In this document: piece after piece, positions 7,595 to 26,457 of the stretch
How the letters are laid out: every line of letters begins with the position of its first letter
Numbering within the stretch: the stretch's first letter is position 1
IMG/VR virus record: IMGVR_UViG_3300030376_001126
Span: 1-31,121 of that record
Reading direction: 5' to 3' (one strand)
Length of the DNA: 31,121 nt
From: a virus
Lineage: Duplodnaviria > Caudoviricetes
Program-made: the position numbers and the translations under genes
The notes under the pieces: model-generated
Seen by the model: the letters and a program-made list of their open reading frames with translations, nothing else
Database searches by the model: none
What the model was told of the DNA's origin: nothing

Positions 7595-7619
7595 TAAAAG
7601 AATAGAGAAAGGACAAATT

Positions 7620-7825: not shown

Positions 7826-8071
7826 ATGATTTTAAAAGTTACAAGGGCTCAGCCATTTGTAAATCCATTTAGAGATTTTAAAGGCGAGGTTTATAAAAGA
7901 CTAATAGATAATAAACTGGTTTGTAGCAAAGAATCTGAACAGATTAGAAAATATGTGTATGAGTTTATTCAAAAAGGCTTTCCGATAGACCGAATGTCTT
8001 GTGATTGTGGTAAATATCAAAGAAAACATTACGCATATTATTATGAGTGGGCATTAGAATATCGCCCATAA
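7826..8071 (+). CDS. Hypothetical protein
   Basis: 81 aa, AAGGGG RBS, followed by a terminator. Confidence 0.6.
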   Translation: MILKVTRAQPFVNPFRDFKGEVYKRLIDNKLVCSKESEQIRKYVYEFIQKGFPIDRMSCDCGKYQRKHYAYYYEWALEYRP

Positions 8072-8097
8072 AAATGGTCTATTGCTAGACCATTTTT
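8070..8097. terminator. Intrinsic terminator (potentially bidirectional)
   Basis: Perfect inverted repeat aaaaatggtcta-ttgc-tagaccattttt. Confidence 0.85.
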
Positions 8098-8173
8098 GAT
8101 AACAGGGCGAAAACGAACGTTTCATTAAACATTTTAGCACAATATAGGGTACAATATTTGTAAAAAGGCATAT

Positions 8174-8818
8174 ATGAATATTGAAACCATTGAGGTAGGT
8201 AAGTTAAAACCACACCCACGAAATTACAAAGAACACCCAGAGCAACAGCTAGAACACATAATTAAATCAATAGAAGAACACGGCTTTTACAGAAACATTG
8301 TAATTGCAAAAGATAATACAATTTTGGCGGGTCATGGCGTAGTACAAGCTAGTAAATTAATGGGTAAACAAAAAGTACCTGTAATAAGATTAGATATAAA
8401 TTCAGATTCGACACAAGCATTAAAAGTTTTAACTTCAGATAACGAGATTGGCAATTTAGCCATGGTAGATGATAGACAATTAAGTGAGGTTTTAAAAGAT
8501 ATATTAGATGAAGAACTTGATTTAACTGGTACTGGTTTCAATGAAGATCAATTAAGTGCATTAATTTATACAACAAGAAATGCAGATGAAATACAAACAA
8601 TAGATGAGGCAAATGAGTGGGTTGGTATTGCTGATTATGAAAACAAACCCGATTCGATCAAAGTTATGGTGCATTTCGATACAGAAGAAGATAGAGAAAA
8701 CTTTATGCAACTGCTTGATAATCCGCATGTTAATTACAAAATGGGCAAGACATGGAAGATTTGGTACCCGGAAAGAGGTAACGAAGATCCTAGTTCAATA
8801 AGATTTGAACATGGATAA
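8174..8818 (+). CDS. ParB/Sulfiredoxin N-terminal domain protein with a C-terminal domain resembling partners of phage glycosyltransferases
   Basis: LKPHPRNY, SIEEHGF, ILAGHG, DN motifs. C-terminal EW.G...Y...I.V.VHF.TEEDR..F..L...TWKIWYP. Confidence 0.8.
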   Translation: MNIETIEVGKLKPHPRNYKEHPEQQLEHIIKSIEEHGFYRNIVIAKDNTILAGHGVVQASKLMGKQKVPVIRLDINSDSTQALKVLTSDNEIGNLAMVDDRQLSEVLKDILDEELDLTGTGFNEDQLSALIYTTRNADEIQTIDEANEWVGIADYENKPDSIKVMVHFDTEEDRENFMQLLDNPHVNYKMGKTWKIWYPERGNEDPSSIRFEHG

Positions 8819-9692
8819 GCCAAAGTACCCAGTCTATATTATTTCTAAAGGCAGAGCTGATGTAGGTTACACAGCAAATTTTATGTTGAAAGACAAAGTA
8901 GATTTTAAATTAGTAATCGAACCACAAGAATTTAAAGAATACGCAAGATTCTATGATGAAAAATTATTAATGGTTACCCCATTTAGCAATCTAGGTAAAG
9001 GCTCAATACCAGTAAGAAACTTTATATGGGAAGATTCAATTAAAAATGGTCATGAAAGGCATTGGTGCTTTGATGACAATATACATAGCATTCGGTATCA
9101 ATGGAACGGCAGAAGAATTAAATGCAATGGCAATCTAGGAATACATGCAGTTGAAAAATTTACTGATAGATATGAGAACATTGCAATTAGTGGCATGAAT
9201 TACACTTTTTTTGTACCACCCGGAACACGCAAACCTTATTATCAGAATTGTAGAGTTTATAGCAATCTTCTTATAAAAAACGATGTAGATTTTAGGTGGC
9301 GAGGTAGATACAACGAAGATACAGATTTATGTTTACAAGCCCTTAGTAAAGATTGGTGTACTGTTCTTGTCAATGCTTTTATGATCGAAAAAAATGCAAC
9401 AATGAGTATGAAAGGCGGGAATGCAACAGAGTTGTATGTTGGCGACGGTAGGTTAAGAATGGCTAGAGAATTAAAAGAGGCATGGCCTTATGTTGTAGAA
9501 GTAAAAAGAGTTTATGGAAGACCACAACATAGAATAAAATTTAATTGGCGACATTTCGATACACAGTTAAAGAGGCGAGATGATATTAATTGGGATAATA
9601 TAGAAGAAGAAAAAATAAAAATGAAGATCAATAAAGTAAACGACATAAAGAGTGAAAAGCTTAAGAAAGATGTAAAAAATTATAATGGCTGA
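8811..9692 (+). CDS. TET-associated/GREB1-like glycosyltransferase (putative DNA-modifying)
   Basis: YPVYIISKGR, RNFIW, HWCFDDNI, WRGRYNEDTDLCLQAL, MKGGN motifs match the phage TAGT family as I recall it. Confidence 0.8.
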   Translation: MDKPKYPVYIISKGRADVGYTANFMLKDKVDFKLVIEPQEFKEYARFYDEKLLMVTPFSNLGKGSIPVRNFIWEDSIKNGHERHWCFDDNIHSIRYQWNGRRIKCNGNLGIHAVEKFTDRYENIAISGMNYTFFVPPGTRKPYYQNCRVYSNLLIKNDVDFRWRGRYNEDTDLCLQALSKDWCTVLVNAFMIEKNATMSMKGGNATELYVGDGRLRMARELKEAWPYVVEVKRVYGRPQHRIKFNWRHFDTQLKRRDDINWDNIEEEKIKMKINKVNDIKSEKLKKDVKNYNG

Positions 9693-9817: not shown

Positions 9818-9873
9818 GCTTGGTGGGGGTATGTCCTTTCTCTAAAAGAATGCACCTACTACCCCCATTGAGC
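9818..9873 (+). ncRNA. Structured RNA element / candidate sRNA with anti-SD loop
   Basis: 14-bp stem gcttggtgggggta/tacccccattgagc with three G-U pairs, favouring + strand RNA. 28-nt loop contains tgtcctttctcta. Confidence 0.5.
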
Positions 9874-9887
9874 AAGAGAGGAAAGAA

Positions 9888-10082
9888 ATGTTTGACCCGA
9901 TAAGTGTTGCAGAGATTGCAGAAATGCTTGGTGTTACAAGACAAAAAGTGGCAAGTCTTAAACATCATGGTAAATTACCAGAGCCAAAAAAGATTCTTAA
10001 ATGTGGACCTTTATGGGACGCAAAAGAGATAGCCGACTTTATAAATAAGGTTGGCATTACAGATAACAGGAGGAAAAAATGA
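9888..10082 (+). CDS. Small HTH DNA-binding protein (AlpA/excisionase-like)
   Basis: SVAEIAEMLGVTRQKV...GKLPEP...GPLW...EI..F. Confidence 0.85.
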   Translation: MFDPISVAEIAEMLGVTRQKVASLKHHGKLPEPKKILKCGPLWDAKEIADFINKVGITDNRRKK

Positions 10083-14283: not shown

Positions 14284-14298
14284 AAAGAAACGCAAAAA

Positions 14299-14330
14299 CC
14301 GAAAGCCCTGCATAATGTAGGGCTTTTTGG
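14299..14330 (+). terminator. Intrinsic terminator
   Basis: aaagccctgca-taa-tgtagggctttt(t). Confidence 0.85.
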
Positions 14331-14348
14331 TATTATACTGATAAACGC

Positions 14349-14792
14349 ATGGCAAATAATAAACCTTATAAATTACTCGATGAAGACTTAACTGATAGAT
14401 TATTAGAAGCTATTAGATTAGGTATGTATACAGAACACGCATGTGCTTATGCGGGGATCAATTCTTCAACATTTAGATTATGGCGAAAGAAAGCTGAAGA
14501 GGGTGTTGAACCTTATAAATCTTTTTGGTTACAGGTAAATCAAGCAGAGGGTACTGCAATTATCAGAAGAATGGCTCGAATCGAACAAGCAGGTAAAGAC
14601 GGCAATTGGCAAGCAGACGCATGGGTATTAGAAAGAAAATACCCCGATAAATTTGGTAGGAAAGAAAAATTACAATTACAAGGCGACCCTAATGCACCAG
14701 TAGAAATAGAATTAAACTGGGCAGACGGTAAAAAACTAGATCGAGAAAATGAAATTGTTGTAGATTTAGATAATTTACAAGAAGAAGAATAA
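14349..14792 (+). CDS. terS: Terminase small subunit
   Basis: HTH (ACAYAGINSSTFRLW) plus WQADAWVLERKYPDKFGR. Upstream of TerL. TATACT -10 at 14334. Confidence 0.8.
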   Translation: MANNKPYKLLDEDLTDRLLEAIRLGMYTEHACAYAGINSSTFRLWRKKAEEGVEPYKSFWLQVNQAEGTAIIRRMARIEQAGKDGNWQADAWVLERKYPDKFGRKEKLQLQGDPNAPVEIELNWADGKKLDRENEIVVDLDNLQEEE

Positions 14793-14872
14793 TGGACAAA
14801 GAAACATGGATAATTGTTGACGGTCATAGAGTTCATATATCATGGTTACCAGAGAAAGAGGAAGAAGAATAA
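14792..14872 (+). CDS. 26-aa micro-ORF
   Basis: MDKETWIIVDGHRVHISWLPEKEEEE*, TAATG-coupled at both ends. Confidence 0.6.
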   Translation: MDKETWIIVDGHRVHISWLPEKEEEE

Positions 14873-15813
14873 TGCCAATTTTTGATGAAATTGTACTTGA
14901 TGACCTAGAAGATGAGCTAAATATACACGAAAATAGCGACTATAAAAAAGAATTAAGAATGGCTAATGACCCTATTGATGAAGAAGTATTAAAAAAGCCA
15001 GTTGATCTAAGAATATTAAGTCTAGGCGCAGGTGTTCAATCGTCTACATTATTGATGAAGATATACAATGGTGTAATAAAACCAGTAGATTATGCAATAT
15101 TTGCAGATACAGGTAATGAGCCACAAGAGGTTTACGATTGGTTTGAGTTTATTACAGATAAAGTAAAAGATAAGATAAAAATTTTAATAGTAAATAATGA
15201 TCGAAATACTGGCGATATAACAAAAGATTTATTAAGTTCAGAGGGTTTCCATGCGTCTATACCTGTTCATGTAAAAAATGCTAGTGGTAAAAAAGGTATG
15301 ACTCTAAGAACATGTACAGATAGATACAAGATTCAACCAATAAATAAAAAGATAAGAGAGATACTAGATGTAAAAACATTAAGAGGTCAATTGGTTGAAA
15401 TAGTTATGGGTATATCTTTAGATGAAATACAGAGGGTTAAAAGACCACCAAACAAATGGGCAATAAACACATACCCATTAATTGAGCAAAGAATAACAAG
15501 AGAAATGTGCCTAGATTACTTTAAAGAATTAGGTTTACCACAACCACCAAAGTCTGCCTGTATAATATGCCCTTATCATGACAATACAGAATGGTTAAGA
15601 ATAAAAGAAAATAACCCAAAAGAATTTGAATCAGCAATAGAATTTGATAAACAACTCAGAGAAAAAAAAGATAGTACATTTGTATCTAAGTTAGACGGTG
15701 AATTGTATTTACACCCTAAATTAATTCCTTTAGATCAAGTAAATTTAAAAGAACGCAAAGATTACCAATTTAGTCTTTTTGATGATGAGTGCGACGGTTA
15801 CTGCGGTGTGTAA
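14872..15813 (+). CDS. PAPS-reductase/DndC-like PP-loop (adenine nucleotide alpha hydrolase) protein with Cys clusters
   Basis: LSLGAGVQS (PP-loop variant), FADTGNE, CT..YKI.PI, SACIICPY, C-terminal ECDGYCGV. Confidence 0.8.
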   Translation: MPIFDEIVLDDLEDELNIHENSDYKKELRMANDPIDEEVLKKPVDLRILSLGAGVQSSTLLMKIYNGVIKPVDYAIFADTGNEPQEVYDWFEFITDKVKDKIKILIVNNDRNTGDITKDLLSSEGFHASIPVHVKNASGKKGMTLRTCTDRYKIQPINKKIREILDVKTLRGQLVEIVMGISLDEIQRVKRPPNKWAINTYPLIEQRITREMCLDYFKELGLPQPPKSACIICPYHDNTEWLRIKENNPKEFESAIEFDKQLREKKDSTFVSKLDGELYLHPKLIPLDQVNLKERKDYQFSLFDDECDGYCGV

Positions 15814-17081
15814 TGGAAACTGAATTAAAAGACATAGGGTATAACAAGAAATTTGTTGTAACCTTACCAGAACTACATGACGGTCAAAAGCAAGTTGCTC
15901 AATCTAATTCAAGGTTTAAGGTCTTATCAGCAGGTCGTAGGTGGGGTAAAACAAGACTTGGTGTTTGGTTATGTTTAGAAAAAGCATGGACTGGTGGTAG
16001 AGCTTGGTGGATTGCACCAACATACGCAATGGCATTAGAGGGTTGGAAAGATTTAAGAAATATTGGCATTGAATATGGAACGATTGTTAAAGAATCAGAA
16101 AAAACAATAATTACGCCAACAGGTGGCATGGTATCGATTCGATCTTCGGACAATCCAGATAGATTAAGAGGTGCAGGGCTTGACTTCGTTGTATTAGATG
16201 AGTGTGCATTTATGAAACCAAATGTATGGGCAGAGGTTATAAGACCAACATTAACTGAAAGACAGGGTGGTGCATTATTTATTTCAACCCCTAAAGGTTT
16301 TAATTGGTTTGAAGATATATACAATAAAGCAGATAGACTACCCGACTGGGAAAGGTGGCAGTTGCCAACACATACAAACCCATTTGTACCAGTTTCAGAG
16401 TTAGATATTGCAAAAGAAGAAATAGGTAGTTATTTATATTCACAAGAATACGAGGCAAAGTTTGTAGAGTTTTCTGGTGGGATATTTAAAGAAGATTGGA
16501 TTAAAACTGCTAAAAGAGATGTGGTAACAATCATGAATAACAATGGTTACTACGAAGAAAAAATCGAATGGACAATAGGCGAAGAAAAAGTATTAGATAG
16601 TGATTTATTAAAATATGCAACAGTCGATCTTGCAACATCTACAAAAGAAACTGCTGATTACACAGTTATTGCTTGTTTAGGTAAAACACCTAGTAATAAA
16701 TTAATTCTTTTAGATATGGTAAGGCAAAGACTTGAGGGGCCGGACATAATACCAAAGATAAAACAAAAGATACAAGAACACGATTTACAATATGTTGGTA
16801 TAGAAAGAGCAGGGTATCAGTTATCTATGATTCAGATTGCAAGAAGAGAGGGGCTGATTGTAAAAGAATTGAAACCAGATAAAGATAAAGTAAACAGAGC
16901 TTTACCTCTATCAGCTTTCATGGAAGGTGGATCAATGTTTTTCAATCAAGCAATTACCGACTATGATGATTTAAAAAGAGAATTATTGCAATTTCCAGAT
17001 GGTGAACATGATGATATGGTAGACGCACTTGCTTATGGTGTATTGGAAATTAAAAATAAAAATAGATATATAGCTTATTAG
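15813..17081 (+). CDS. terL: Terminase large subunit
   Basis: Walker A GRRWGKT, Walker B VVLDE, ISTPKG, nuclease DLA...DY and HDDMVDAL. TAATG start. Confidence 0.95.
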   Translation: METELKDIGYNKKFVVTLPELHDGQKQVAQSNSRFKVLSAGRRWGKTRLGVWLCLEKAWTGGRAWWIAPTYAMALEGWKDLRNIGIEYGTIVKESEKTIITPTGGMVSIRSSDNPDRLRGAGLDFVVLDECAFMKPNVWAEVIRPTLTERQGGALFISTPKGFNWFEDIYNKADRLPDWERWQLPTHTNPFVPVSELDIAKEEIGSYLYSQEYEAKFVEFSGGIFKEDWIKTAKRDVVTIMNNNGYYEEKIEWTIGEEKVLDSDLLKYATVDLATSTKETADYTVIACLGKTPSNKLILLDMVRQRLEGPDIIPKIKQKIQEHDLQYVGIERAGYQLSMIQIARREGLIVKELKPDKDKVNRALPLSAFMEGGSMFFNQAITDYDDLKRELLQFPDGEHDDMVDALAYGVLEIKNKNRYIAY

Positions 17082-17118
17082 CTTGTAAATATTTATGTAT
17101 TATGGTAGTGAGTAGATT

Positions 17119-17169
17119 TGGCTCAACGCAAGATAGTTTTTAGGTGCGTTTCTATCTTGCCGAGGGCCA
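17119..17169 (+). promoter_or_regulatory. Structured 5' leader of the head operon
   Basis: Stem gcaagatag (17128-17136)/ctatcttgc (17152-17160), outer stem tggctc/gggcca, competing pairing aacgca/tgcgtt. GAAAGG RBS at 17174. Confidence 0.5.
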
Positions 17170-17186
17170 TTATGAAAGGTTAAATT

Positions 17187-18884
17187 TTGGCAGAACGAAG
17201 ATCAATTAGAGAAGTTTTATTTGGCAATACAACTTATACAAATGAGAATCAAAAAAGATATGGAATAAACTTCTTCAGAGAAGACCCAGTTACGCCTAGC
17301 AGTTATGTTCTTGGTTACAATACATTTGCAGGCAACACAGATTTAAGAGATTTAGGAAATGGACAATCAAACAGTGCGGTAACTGCTTGTCTTCAAGTAT
17401 TAGGTACATCTTTTTCAGAAGCAAACTTAATTGTAAAATCGTATCAAGAAGACGGCGAAGAGGCCATTATTCATAACCACCCATTGTCAATTTTAATGGA
17501 TAGACCAAACCCTTATATGAGCGGTGAGGTATTACAGGCATATATAATTAATGCTTTACATGTATTCGGCGACGCATATTTATTAAAAGAAAAAAACAAT
17601 GTTGGTCAAGTTGTTGCATTATATCCGCTTATTCCAGATCGAGTAACACCAAAAGGAACTGATACGCAGTTAATTACACAATATATTTATGAAATGGAAA
17701 ATACCAATGAAGTATTAAATCCAGATGAGGTAATACACTTTAGATTAGGTTTAGACCCTACAAACCACAAGAAAGGTTATTCGCCATTAAAAACTGTTCT
17801 TCGTGAAATATTTGGCGATGAGTCAGCAGGTCAATTATCAAGTGCTTTGTTAAGTAACTCTGGTGTGCCAAGTGTAATTATTAGCCCTAGAGAAGATTTT
17901 GGAATTTCTGCTGAAGAGTCGGATCAGATAAGTAGAACATATCAACAAAAGGTTGGTGGTGCAAAAAGAGGACAACCTCTAGTTCTAAGTGGCTCAATGC
18001 AAGTAGAAAAAATGTCATTTAGCCCTAGTGAATTAGATATAGGAACATTAAGAAGAATACCAGAAGAAAGGGTATCAGCAGTTCTTGGTGTACCTGCAAT
18101 CTTGGCTGGTCTTGGTGCAGGGTTAGAAAGAGCAACATATTCTAATGCACAACAATTAAGAGAATTTTTTACAGAGAATAAATTAATACCATTGTGGCGT
18201 ATGGTAAGTACAGAATTGACATATCAGTTACTACAAAAAGATTATGAGAGTAATGCAATTCTAAAAGCTGAATATGATTTTTCAAATGTTCGATCATTAC
18301 AAGCCGATGAAGAAAACTTATATAAAAGATTAAATGTCGGTGTTAAAGGTGGTTGGATTTCTGTTGCAGAAGCAAGACAACAGGTAGGTTTACCAACAAC
18401 AGATGAACAAGATATTTATTATGTACCTGCAAATGTTGTACCAACAGAGGCAAATGTTTTAAATGAAGTAGAGCCAAAAATAGAAGAAGAACAACTTGAG
18501 ACACAGGAAGATGTAGATGATGAGTTTGAAGAATCAGCATACATTATTGATGAAACCAAAATAATAAAACAAGAAGACGGTGAGTTTTGTGTCTATAACG
18601 AACAGGGTACAAGAAGTTTTGGTTGTTACCCTACAAGAAAATTAGCAGAGGCACGATTGGCTCAAATACACATGTTCGGTGAATCACAATACGAAGAGAT
18701 AGATGTAAAAGAAGAAGTTGGCATGGATAAATTTACAACAATAGAAGAGGCACAAGAAAGAGCCGAAGAACTAGGTTGTAATGGAACACATACCCATGAT
18801 GAAGACGGTAACCTTATTTATATGCCATGTTCTACACATGCAGAATACGAAAGAAGATTAGCAGAACAAAATGGCGACTCTTAG
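17187..18884 (+). CDS. HK97-family portal protein with C-terminal Cys/His-containing extension domains
   Basis: TTG start. HPL..L..RPNP.MS, GDAYL, L.PDRV, GYSPL, GVP, YSN, EAR...GL portal motifs, then about 130 aa of extra sequence. Confidence 0.93.
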   Translation: MAERRSIREVLFGNTTYTNENQKRYGINFFREDPVTPSSYVLGYNTFAGNTDLRDLGNGQSNSAVTACLQVLGTSFSEANLIVKSYQEDGEEAIIHNHPLSILMDRPNPYMSGEVLQAYIINALHVFGDAYLLKEKNNVGQVVALYPLIPDRVTPKGTDTQLITQYIYEMENTNEVLNPDEVIHFRLGLDPTNHKKGYSPLKTVLREIFGDESAGQLSSALLSNSGVPSVIISPREDFGISAEESDQISRTYQQKVGGAKRGQPLVLSGSMQVEKMSFSPSELDIGTLRRIPEERVSAVLGVPAILAGLGAGLERATYSNAQQLREFFTENKLIPLWRMVSTELTYQLLQKDYESNAILKAEYDFSNVRSLQADEENLYKRLNVGVKGGWISVAEARQQVGLPTTDEQDIYYVPANVVPTEANVLNEVEPKIEEEQLETQEDVDDEFEESAYIIDETKIIKQEDGEFCVYNEQGTRSFGCYPTRKLAEARLAQIHMFGESQYEEIDVKEEVGMDKFTTIEEAQERAEELGCNGTHTHDEDGNLIYMPCSTHAEYERRLAEQNGDS

Positions 18885-22785: not shown

Positions 22786-22797
22786 TAAATATGGTTT

Positions 22798-22829
22798 TAT
22801 CGCACTCGTCTTTCGAGTCGGGTGCGGTA
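22798..22829 (+). other. GC-rich RNA hairpin capped by UUCG after the capsid gene
   Basis: tatcgcactcg-t-ct-TTCG-ag-t-cgggtgcggta, with G-U pairs and no U tail. Confidence 0.6.
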
Positions 22830-22847
22830 GATCAAAGAAAGGCAAAA

Positions 22848-24934: not shown

Positions 24935-24972
24935 TGGATTGTTGTGGTCAAGGTTGTTGCGGAGGTAAATAA
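24934..24972 (+). CDS. 12-aa Cys-rich peptide (not in ORF track)
   Basis: MDCCGQGCCGGK*, GGAGGT RBS, TAATG-coupled at both ends. Confidence 0.55.
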   Translation: MDCCGQGCCGGK

Positions 24973-25688
24973 TGGCATTTGTACATGGTAAAGATTCGGT
25001 TATTTTATTAAATCAACACAATTTAAGTCAATATTTTAATAATGTAGATTTTAACAGAACTGCTGATATTGCAGAAACAACTGCATTTGGTAATGACGAT
25101 AAGAATTATATTGCAGGCGATAAAGACGGTACTGTTAGTTTAACTGGTATGTTTGACACAACTGCTGACGCTATATTACAACCACTTTTAGGGTCTTCAA
25201 CAGATACAAGTGTTTGTATTGGTGCAGACGGTATCACAGACGGAAAAAGTATATTTTTTGGAATTGGACCAATAACTGGGTATGGACAATCAAGCCCTGT
25301 TGGTGATGTAGTTGCAACAAGTTTCGATCTACAAGCAAATGCAGGTTTATTTAATGGATTAGTATTAGACAATGCAACAATAACTGCAACAGGTAATTCA
25401 ACTGCTACTGATAATTCTTCAAGTACAGCAAATGGTGGTGCAGGTATAGCAGTTGTTACATCTGTATCTGGTACATCAACACCAACTGCAACAATAAAAA
25501 TACAACATAGTTCTGATGATTCAACCTATGTTGATTTAGTAACTTTTACAAATTTCACTGCCGTAGGATCACAAGTAAGTGAGGTTGCGAGTGGAACAAC
25601 TATAAATAGGTATCTAAGAGTCAATTATACAATTACCGGAACTAACCCTAGTTTCGCATGTGTTGTTGGCTTTGGAAGAGTAGGATAG
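24972..25688 (+). CDS. Tail tube protein paralogue with C-terminal beta-domain extension
   Basis: N-terminal ~125 aa paralogous to 25699..26109 (MAFVHGKDSV, TAD.AETT..G.D.K.YIAG.KD, SSPVGDVVA.S.DLQ). Confidence 0.75.
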   Translation: MAFVHGKDSVILLNQHNLSQYFNNVDFNRTADIAETTAFGNDDKNYIAGDKDGTVSLTGMFDTTADAILQPLLGSSTDTSVCIGADGITDGKSIFFGIGPITGYGQSSPVGDVVATSFDLQANAGLFNGLVLDNATITATGNSTATDNSSSTANGGAGIAVVTSVSGTSTPTATIKIQHSSDDSTYVDLVTFTNFTAVGSQVSEVASGTTINRYLRVNYTITGTNPSFACVVGFGRVG

Positions 25689-25698
25689 GAGACAAAAT

Positions 25699-26109
25699 AT
25701 GGCATTTGTACATGGTAAAGATAGTGTATTCAAACTTGATAATTCAGGTGGATCACTTACTGATATAAGCACTTATGTAAATACTGTGGACTTTCCAGAA
25801 ACAGCAGATGTAGCTGAAACAACAACTCTAGGTGCAGATAATAAAACCTATATTGCAGGTTTGAAAGACGCAACCATTTCTCTTGGTGGAGTATGGGACG
25901 CAACTGCAGACGCAATATTTGGTGCAGTAGTCGGTCAAGCCGCTACCTTATCATTTGAATATTCACCAGAAGGCACTGCCTCTGGAAAAATCAAATATAC
26001 AGGCGAGTGCATAATGACAAACTATGCTATATCTTCACCTGTAGGAGATGTTGTTGCATTTAGCTCTGATTTGCAAGTATCTGGTGCAGTTACACGCGGA
26101 ACACACTAG
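25699..26109 (+). CDS. Major tail (tube) protein
   Basis: 136 aa, AGGAG RBS, immediately before the chaperones and tape measure. Confidence 0.85.
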   Translation: MAFVHGKDSVFKLDNSGGSLTDISTYVNTVDFPETADVAETTTLGADNKTYIAGLKDATISLGGVWDATADAIFGAVVGQAATLSFEYSPEGTASGKIKYTGECIMTNYAISSPVGDVVAFSSDLQVSGAVTRGTH

Positions 26110-26118
26110 TATTAAATT

Positions 26119-26457
26119 ATGAGTAGTAAAAAACGACTTACGCTAGAAGATTTAGCTAGTTTACCAACAGTACCCACTGAAGAAATATTTATTGATGAGT
26201 GGGATAAAACAATATTGGTACAAGGTATTTCAAAAGCAACACAAATAAAACTAGGTCGGCTTGTCAACGCAGAAGACACAGACGCATTCGATTACCAAAG
26301 AGAATTGCTTAAGGTTAGTGTTGTCGAGCCAAAATTAGATGATGACGCAATAAATATGCTCTATGAAAAAGATTCAACAATAGTAGATAAGATATTTCTT
26401 GCATTAAATAATCTAAATGGTATTGGAGGTACAGGCGACTTAGCCGACCAGTTTTGA
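26119..26457 (+). CDS. Tail assembly chaperone (gpG-like)
   Basis: Position between tube and TMP. Ends CAG TTT TGA. Confidence 0.85.
   Translation: MSSKKRLTLEDLASLPTVPTEEIFIDEWDKTILVQGISKATQIKLGRLVNAEDTDAFDYQRELLKVSVVEPKLDDDAINMLYEKDSTIVDKIFLALNNLNGIGGTGDLADQF

Follow-up and report, generated by a model that had tools for sequence, protein, structure and literature searches.

The junction between the terminase large subunit gene and the portal gene of a tailed phage carries a long hairpin whose loop is complementary to the loop of a second hairpin far upstream in the same genome. The question raised by this locus is whether the hairpin is a conserved RNA element and, if so, which sites its loop pairs with and which side of each pair is the regulator. 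The window analyzed here is the whole stretch of 31,121 nucleotides, taken from a linear, 95% complete, 31-kb tailed-phage record with approximately 34% GC. Its annotated genes lie on the plus strand throughout, and those needed for the analysis are as follows.

From 9888, plus strand: operon of HTH, SSAP (single-strand-annealing) and replication-initiator genes (PHROG matches)
9888..10082, plus strand: small HTH DNA-binding protein, the first gene behind the early hairpin (profile search)
14349..14792, plus strand: terminase small subunit, terS (phrog_4102, E 2e-30)
15789..17081, plus strand: terminase large subunit, terL (PHROG match)
17174..17189, plus strand: SD-like GAAAGG and TTG start of the portal gene (sequence)
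17187..18884, plus strand: portal protein, followed by head and tail genes (PHROG match)
26119..26457, plus strand: gene between the major tail and tape-measure genes, a putative tail chaperone judged solely from its position (no match in PHROG or Pfam)

Structure of the portal-leader hairpin

17119..17169, plus strand: portal-leader hairpin with an outer stem, an internal loop, a 9-bp inner stem and a 15-nt loop (folding, covariation, distribution)
17119-17124 with 17164-17169, plus strand: outer stem closing the hairpin (folding)
17128-17136 with 17152-17160, plus strand: inner stem GCAAGATAG / CTATCTTGC (folding)
17141..17151, plus strand: loop seed UAGGUGCGUUU, invariant in clade A, with an opening cost of 0.1 kcal/mol

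A preliminary description of this DNA had reported the 9-bp stem, a second pairing within the leader, and a match of 9 Watson-Crick and 2 G-U pairs to the upstream loop, and all of its coordinates proved correct. The plus strand of the hairpin folds at -20.8 kcal/mol (z -2.3), with 5 of 200 shuffles as good, and the minus strand folds too (-18.0 kcal/mol, z -3.4). The region 17119-17169 does not resemble an intrinsic terminator, as its loop is 15 nt long and no U-run follows 17169, and it is not among the window's 8 terminator-like sites.

A sense-strand transcription start near 17105-17115, suggested in the same description, received no support from promoter matches, and the better match points leftward. 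In 11 clade-A leaders, the leftward matches reached 8-10 of 12 positions and the sense matches 8-9 of 12; promoter-like sites in the window as a whole occur at chance level (42 vs 42.1). The leftward promoter-like site, on the minus strand at 17126-17099, reads TTGA(G/C)C-16/17-CATA(A/T)T and is present at 8-10 of 12 in 11/11 clade-A leaders, with TTGTCC-15-TATGAT as the variant in L174. Such a site would yield an RNA antisense to the 3′ end of terL. One RNA run contributed 3 short pieces that were less than 90% alike, none of them on the early or the portal-leader hairpin.

Conservation of the hairpin among relatives

Relatives of the portal protein (n = 80) were drawn from viral and marine metagenome contigs, and 76 of them had a readable leader. 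A long hairpin that ends just before the RBS was found in 49 of these 76 leaders, and the other 27 have none. The 49 hairpins fall into four loop types, namely A, the type of the window (9), B (28), C (7) and D (5), and the A, B and C loops have GGUG(C/U)GU(U/C) in common. In the clade-A leaders (n = 10), 130 of 130 stem cells were paired and two pairs had changed on both sides. Stem covariation in this clade was 0.231 vs 0.093 (0 of 500 shuffles), a pair-count measure was not significant (141 of 500 shuffles), and the loop showed no variation across the 10 leaders. Among the clade-B leaders (n = 17), 7 of 18 stem pairs were compensatory.

A quick version of the portal tree placed A in one clade and B with C in another, with hairpin-less clades in between. 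With only these two hairpin clades on the tree, the rows are not independent; the row counts given here cover related genomes, which provide few independent contrasts for co-change of loop and site. A model built from clade B finds the A hairpins at full length and in register, although weakly (window, 10.3 bits, E 0.88; L174, E 0.048). With scores this weak, the homology of the A and B hairpins rests on position and layout, and is plausible but not proven. Pattern scans for the stem (33 loci, mostly unrelated), for the early loop (26 loci, 2 of them known relatives) and for the B2 leader (15 loci, 4 already known) brought in no new family member.

A separate hairpin follows the capsid gene at 22792-22835. 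It is stable (z -5.1) and ends just before an RBS, and relatives retain its structure whether or not they have the portal hairpin.

Predicted pairing with the leader of the HTH operon

9818..9873, plus strand: leader hairpin of the HTH / SSAP / replication-initiator operon, here called the early hairpin (folding, relatives)
9832..9844, plus strand: anti-SD half of the early loop, complementary to the extended RBSs of the phage
9848..9858, plus strand: partner site 1, GAAUGCACCUA, in the early-hairpin loop (complementarity to 17141-17151)

Pairing of 17141-17151 with 9848-9858 gives an unbroken 11-bp helix of -14.3 kcal/mol. The preliminary description had been wary that a core of this kind could arise by chance, but the match goes beyond chance. 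One of 3000 shuffled versions of the early loop gave an unbroken helix of this energy, and among 2067 30-nt plus-strand segments of the window the early loop alone did so. When bulges were allowed, the 9848-9858 site came 4th in the window, yet it was the best intergenic one.

Co-variation of the two loops in related phages had been named in advance as a check on the pairing, and it is seen both as retention in clade A and as mirrored, both-sided changes in clade B2. AAUGCACCUA is kept in 5/5 clade-A lineages that hold both elements, while neighboring loop and stem bases vary, and in three clade-A lineages the helix between the portal loop and the HTH leader extends to 13-15 bp. The HTH leader of three B2 lineages has AACAU(G/A)CCC, matching UGGGUGUGUU; relative to A, this pair has two positions changed on both sides. 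The HTH leader was the best-matching gene leader for its own loop in 7 of the 9 lineages with both elements, 3rd of 63 in G042, and without a match in G031. The match was absent in 3/3 hairpin-less lineages. The A loops pair poorly with B2 leaders and the B loops pair with both (A leaders at energies of -10 to -15); since the B loops pair as well with A leaders, the specificity is one-way.

RNAalifold, run on 6 early hairpins in an alignment that was out of register, gave 5 invariant pairs only and no covariation. The early hairpins each fold alone, and covariation of the early stem rests on inspection. Near the early hairpin, Rfam gave 3 sub-threshold matches, which were treated as chance.

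The anti-SD half (9832-9844) has its best matches at the RBSs at 7597, 12619, 11665 and 13807. In each of the 8 loci scanned, its matches were for the most part RBS-like sites, but it might also form a pseudoknot with its own SD. The B2 HTH leaders of L235, L236, L244 and L257 form a hairpin with the invariant loop GAACAGGCAACUGCAA on changing stems. Anti-SD-like (C)UCCUUU or CCUCC also occurs in the loops of many other leader hairpins in this phage family, for example in L014, L029 and L077 (upstream of terS), L154/L155, L116 and L258. The palindrome AATCT(T/A)AGATT is found at four promoter-like sites (7149, 9792, 11621, 13763), at three of them directly before TTGACA and at one after TTGTCA. 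It is likely an operator, with the HTH protein as a candidate binder.

Predicted pairing at the start of terS

14298-14331, plus strand: terminator-like hairpin just before the extended -10-like element (folding)
14328..14336, plus strand: extended -10-like element TGGTATTAT, 12 nt before the terS ATG
14343..14350, plus strand: partner site 2, AAACGC-AU, which borders on the terS start codon and overlaps it (loop complementarity)

The terS start holds a further partner of the portal-leader loop, one that is absent from the preliminary description. In clade A the ATG is preceded by AAACGC; in those B genomes whose TerS belongs to the same clade, the site reads GAAC(AC)(A). Where TerS is at least 58% identical to that of the window, the site abuts the ATG in 20 of 20 hairpin rows (16 distinct) and in 0 of 9 hairpin-less ones. 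When candidate starts were ranked (6-116 per genome), the terS start region came 1st to 6th in 14 of the 18 hairpin genomes with a terS hit, and in 1 of 6 hairpin-less genomes (L196, a weak match). The window's own terS site was 2nd of 50 among the starts listed. Duplexes with terS are short, at 7-10 bp and -7 to -12 kcal/mol, and folding predicts no structure in the 5′ region of terS.

In A and in two B1 rows, the ATG follows the extended -10-like TGnTAnnnT at a distance of 11-13 nt, and in B2 at 18-19 nt; the clade-A terS leaders have no SD. Given this position of the -10-like element and the lack of an SD in A, the partner site would be the 5′ end of the terS message, and we infer that the message starts at the partner site and is SD-less.

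The 10 B1 rows with a different TerS clade comprise 5 that have RACAUACUC approximately 35 nt upstream, 1 with a match at the ATG, and four genomes with no terS-start site. In clade C, terS was not detected in 3/3 genomes, and no partner site was found for the clade D loops.

A third site ahead of a tail gene

In 10/10 B/C rows, the gene after the major tail gene has the loop complement between its SD and AUG, in the form GGACGCA for C-type loops. The site is missing from 5 A rows (the window included), 12 hairpin-less rows and 1 D row. Loop and site change together in the pairs AAACGCA/UGCGUUU, GAACACA/UGUGUUC and GGACGCA/UGCGUCU, and 8/8 hand-picked sites pair best with their own loop type. 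Differences that are compatible with G-U pairing are weak evidence, as the loop complement is A/C-rich and nearly any transition qualifies; an argument on direction drawn from G-U pairs proved too weak to keep. No consistent match to the loop was seen in the capsid, major tail and tape-measure leaders.

Two other candidate sites were rejected. GCACCT sites before the adaptor gene are equally frequent in hairpin-less genomes, and a match in terL codons near 17020 reflects conserved D-A codons.

The tracking of the loop by its sites bears on two explanations that would do without RNA pairing. One is that the hairpin is a mere processing, stabilizing or U-less terminator stem and that its complementarities are incidental. 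Long junction hairpins are indeed common in the phage family, for example after the capsid gene, and G/U-rich loops easily find 8-10-bp partners. However, both the presence and the sequence of the partner sites track the loop, and the early match was equaled so rarely (1/3000 shuffles) that incidental complementarity appears very improbable.

The other explanation is that a single phage protein binds all of these sites as DNA, the hairpin containing an inverted copy. The location of the terS site at the predicted transcription start, the transitions by which the copies differ, which a protein could tolerate, and the folding of the minus strand would all fit. Protein binding does not account as easily for a single inverted copy when all others are forward, or for the placement of that copy in a stem whose G-U pairs and compensatory changes are RNA-like. 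Moreover, the tail-gene site is mid-operon, between SD and AUG, and in L192 and L142 the early match is extended through bulged registers. We consider a common DNA-binding protein to be an improbable explanation.

Predicted pairing within the portal leader

17125..17130, plus strand: cis partner AACGCA, pairing with 17145-17150, with a minor alternative fold predicted over the portal start codon

A switch between two exclusive folds of the leader had been proposed earlier. The cis pairing is exact in the window, but it is only partly conserved in clade A, where the cis partner is broken (AAAGCA) in 5 of 10 leaders. The alternative fold is possible in 4 of the 9 A leaders folded, and the opening cost is higher there. 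In the window, the cis fold is predicted to lie 2.7-4.0 kcal/mol above the main fold (approximately 7%) and to raise the opening cost of the portal start region from 2.4 to 7.9 kcal/mol. Of 18 distinct clade-B leaders, 17 have the cis partner immediately behind the terL stop, and in 10 of 14 the main and alternative folds differ by no more than 0.3 kcal/mol. The B leaders showed no consistent change in portal access between the folds, and a crude ribosome-block model of them gave no consistent switch.

These observations bear on whether all pairings might act in cis on one terS-terL-portal transcript, in which portal translation would be coupled to terminase translation by a local switch where terL stops and by long-range contact with the 5′ end. 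The constant placement of the cis partner and the near-isoenergetic folds in clade B are in keeping with such coupling, as are the L075 loop, which retains only its cis-pairing part, and the lack of a good sense promoter before the A hairpin. The coupling is nevertheless doubtful. It would require a consistent ON/OFF change of portal access, which B does not have, and a cis partner, which 5 of 9 A leaders lack; furthermore, the HTH leader lies upstream of the terminator-like hairpin, and the tail-gene site is approximately 9 kb downstream.

Probable direction of regulation

As judged by comparing sequences, the portal-leader hairpin is a real, conserved RNA element with partner sites that co-vary with its loop, and the loop very probably pairs with these sites. 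One invariant, open loop faces partners that are gained, lost and moved, a pattern that is typical of a regulator seed and that points to the late hairpin as the regulator. The comparison revealed what is looked for in a trans-acting antisense RNA, an accessible seed with conserved, co-varying complementarity to distant leaders and starts. In the 3 lineages computed, the net energy of the seed (10-bp core) was -9 to -12 kcal/mol. A helix of 11-15 bp between two closed loops requires stem melting.

On balance we lean, by a narrow preference, toward the hairpin as a late antisense repressor of the HTH operon leader and terS. The loop seed would bind the terS start and the HTH-operon leader once head-gene RNA accumulates, and translation would go down. 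At terS and at the tail gene of clades B and C, the duplex would cover the bases just before the AUG, while at the HTH leader the pairing could instead neutralize the anti-SD half of the early hairpin. The upstream cis copy, present in most of clade B and half of clade A, would hide the seed in the alternative fold. We infer from these patterns that the hairpin RNA is made, pairs in the cell and represses. A broader role is a tentative suggestion that we would not expect to hold in full: the leader may be a multi-target antisense RNA closing the lytic program, damping terS and tail-chaperone synthesis, and kissing the anti-SD hairpin silencing promoter-proximal genes.

Regulation from early to late had been put forward in the preliminary description. 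The loop-loop complementarity of that proposal stands, but its direction is less likely than the reverse. The early leader RNA would have to hold portal translation off by placing its 3′ half against the late loop and its anti-SD half against the portal SD. A two-piece duplex of this kind (loop plus portal SD) ranks first in L140 and L143 and second in L142 and L205, but it is not the top site in the window, L187 or L192. In three lineages, duplexes of 13-15 bp reach into the top of the late stem, and the cis fold of the window makes the portal start harder to open (2.4 to 7.9 kcal/mol, as above). When the paired bases were blocked in folding models of 3 lineages, however, the accessibility of the portal and HTH RBSs did not change, and the late stem was likewise unaffected. 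The terS and tail-gene sites are left unexplained by an early regulator. Since the late loop is invariant and accessible, has extra partners in terS and the tail gene, and leaves RBS access unchanged when paired, control of the portal by the early RNA is unlikely.

Comparison with known phage RNAs

Promoters, antitermination and RBS strength are usually held responsible for the dosage of late genes in tailed phages. In phage T4, hairpins in early transcripts hide the RBSs of late genes (e, soc, 49) purely in cis. The likeness to T4 lies in upstream sequence of longer transcripts that refolds a late RBS, as the cis copy described here might; in contrast, the T4 hairpins have no loop with distant, co-varying partners. 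The antisense RNAs OOP, aQ and sar are cis-encoded with long complementarity, whereas the pairing here is 7-15 bp and to unlinked sites. As outlined in a review (PMC12197685), OOP and aQ of lambda are directed against cII and Q, and sar of P22 against ant, so that the likeness to the present element lies in RNA-level control of phage developmental timing.

The same review describes AgvB and AsxR of Stx-related prophages as anti-sRNAs that act on host sRNAs with the involvement of Hfq. One RNA neutralizes another in these cases, and the late loop might act in this way on the anti-SD early hairpin, but both partners here are phage mRNA leaders. It also describes the c4 antisense RNA of phages P1 and P7, which targets the antirepressor message and controls immunity. 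As presented there, c4 is similarly a phage-encoded structured RNA whose loops base-pair close to the ribosome binding site of a distant phage message. The portal-leader element differs in being a single hairpin in a late-operon leader with no Rfam c4 match, and in having terS, the HTH operon leader and a tail gene as partners instead of the antirepressor message; no antirepressor family was among the listed hits of the 49 window ORFs scanned. The element would therefore work like P1 c4 but is not c4.

Rfam gave no match in the window at gathering score, and none at E≤5 for 17040-17240. A literature search, with most subscription papers outside its reach, retrieved no description of such a portal-leader element, and the words "terminase" and "portal" are absent from the accessible part of PMC12197685. 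Judging from these comparisons, the hairpin likely extends trans-antisense control in phages and is likely a previously undescribed element. A portal-leader loop that changes together with its sites at terS and other assembly genes would add a base-pairing layer that sets low-copy assembly proteins against structural ones; on the broader reading given above, two mRNA leaders of a widespread marine phage family would constitute an RNA-only early/late circuit. The loop/site pairs of A, B and C, matched by nature, could serve directly as swap controls.

Host scans and other features of the window

A first GTDB host scan was empty. The second round gave 13 distant loci (33-43% identity, with one short fragment at 58%), and 7 of the loci are titled Chloroflexota/Chloroflexi or Ardenticatenales. 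The cultured phages compared with the window were all below 60%. Actinomarina phages described in PMC7771536 are similar in size and GC to the window phage; no WhiB match was found among the window ORFs scanned.

Two tandem major-tail-protein-like genes with near-identical starts lie at 24972-25688 and 25699-26109. A ParB-like gene with a glucosyltransferase-like gene (8174-9692) and a PAPS-reductase-like gene in the terS-terL interval (14842-15813) suggest a DNA modification module. In addition, a strong nested hairpin with a 13-bp inner stem is located at 8046-8127, at the end of ORF 7826, and is present in L006 too.
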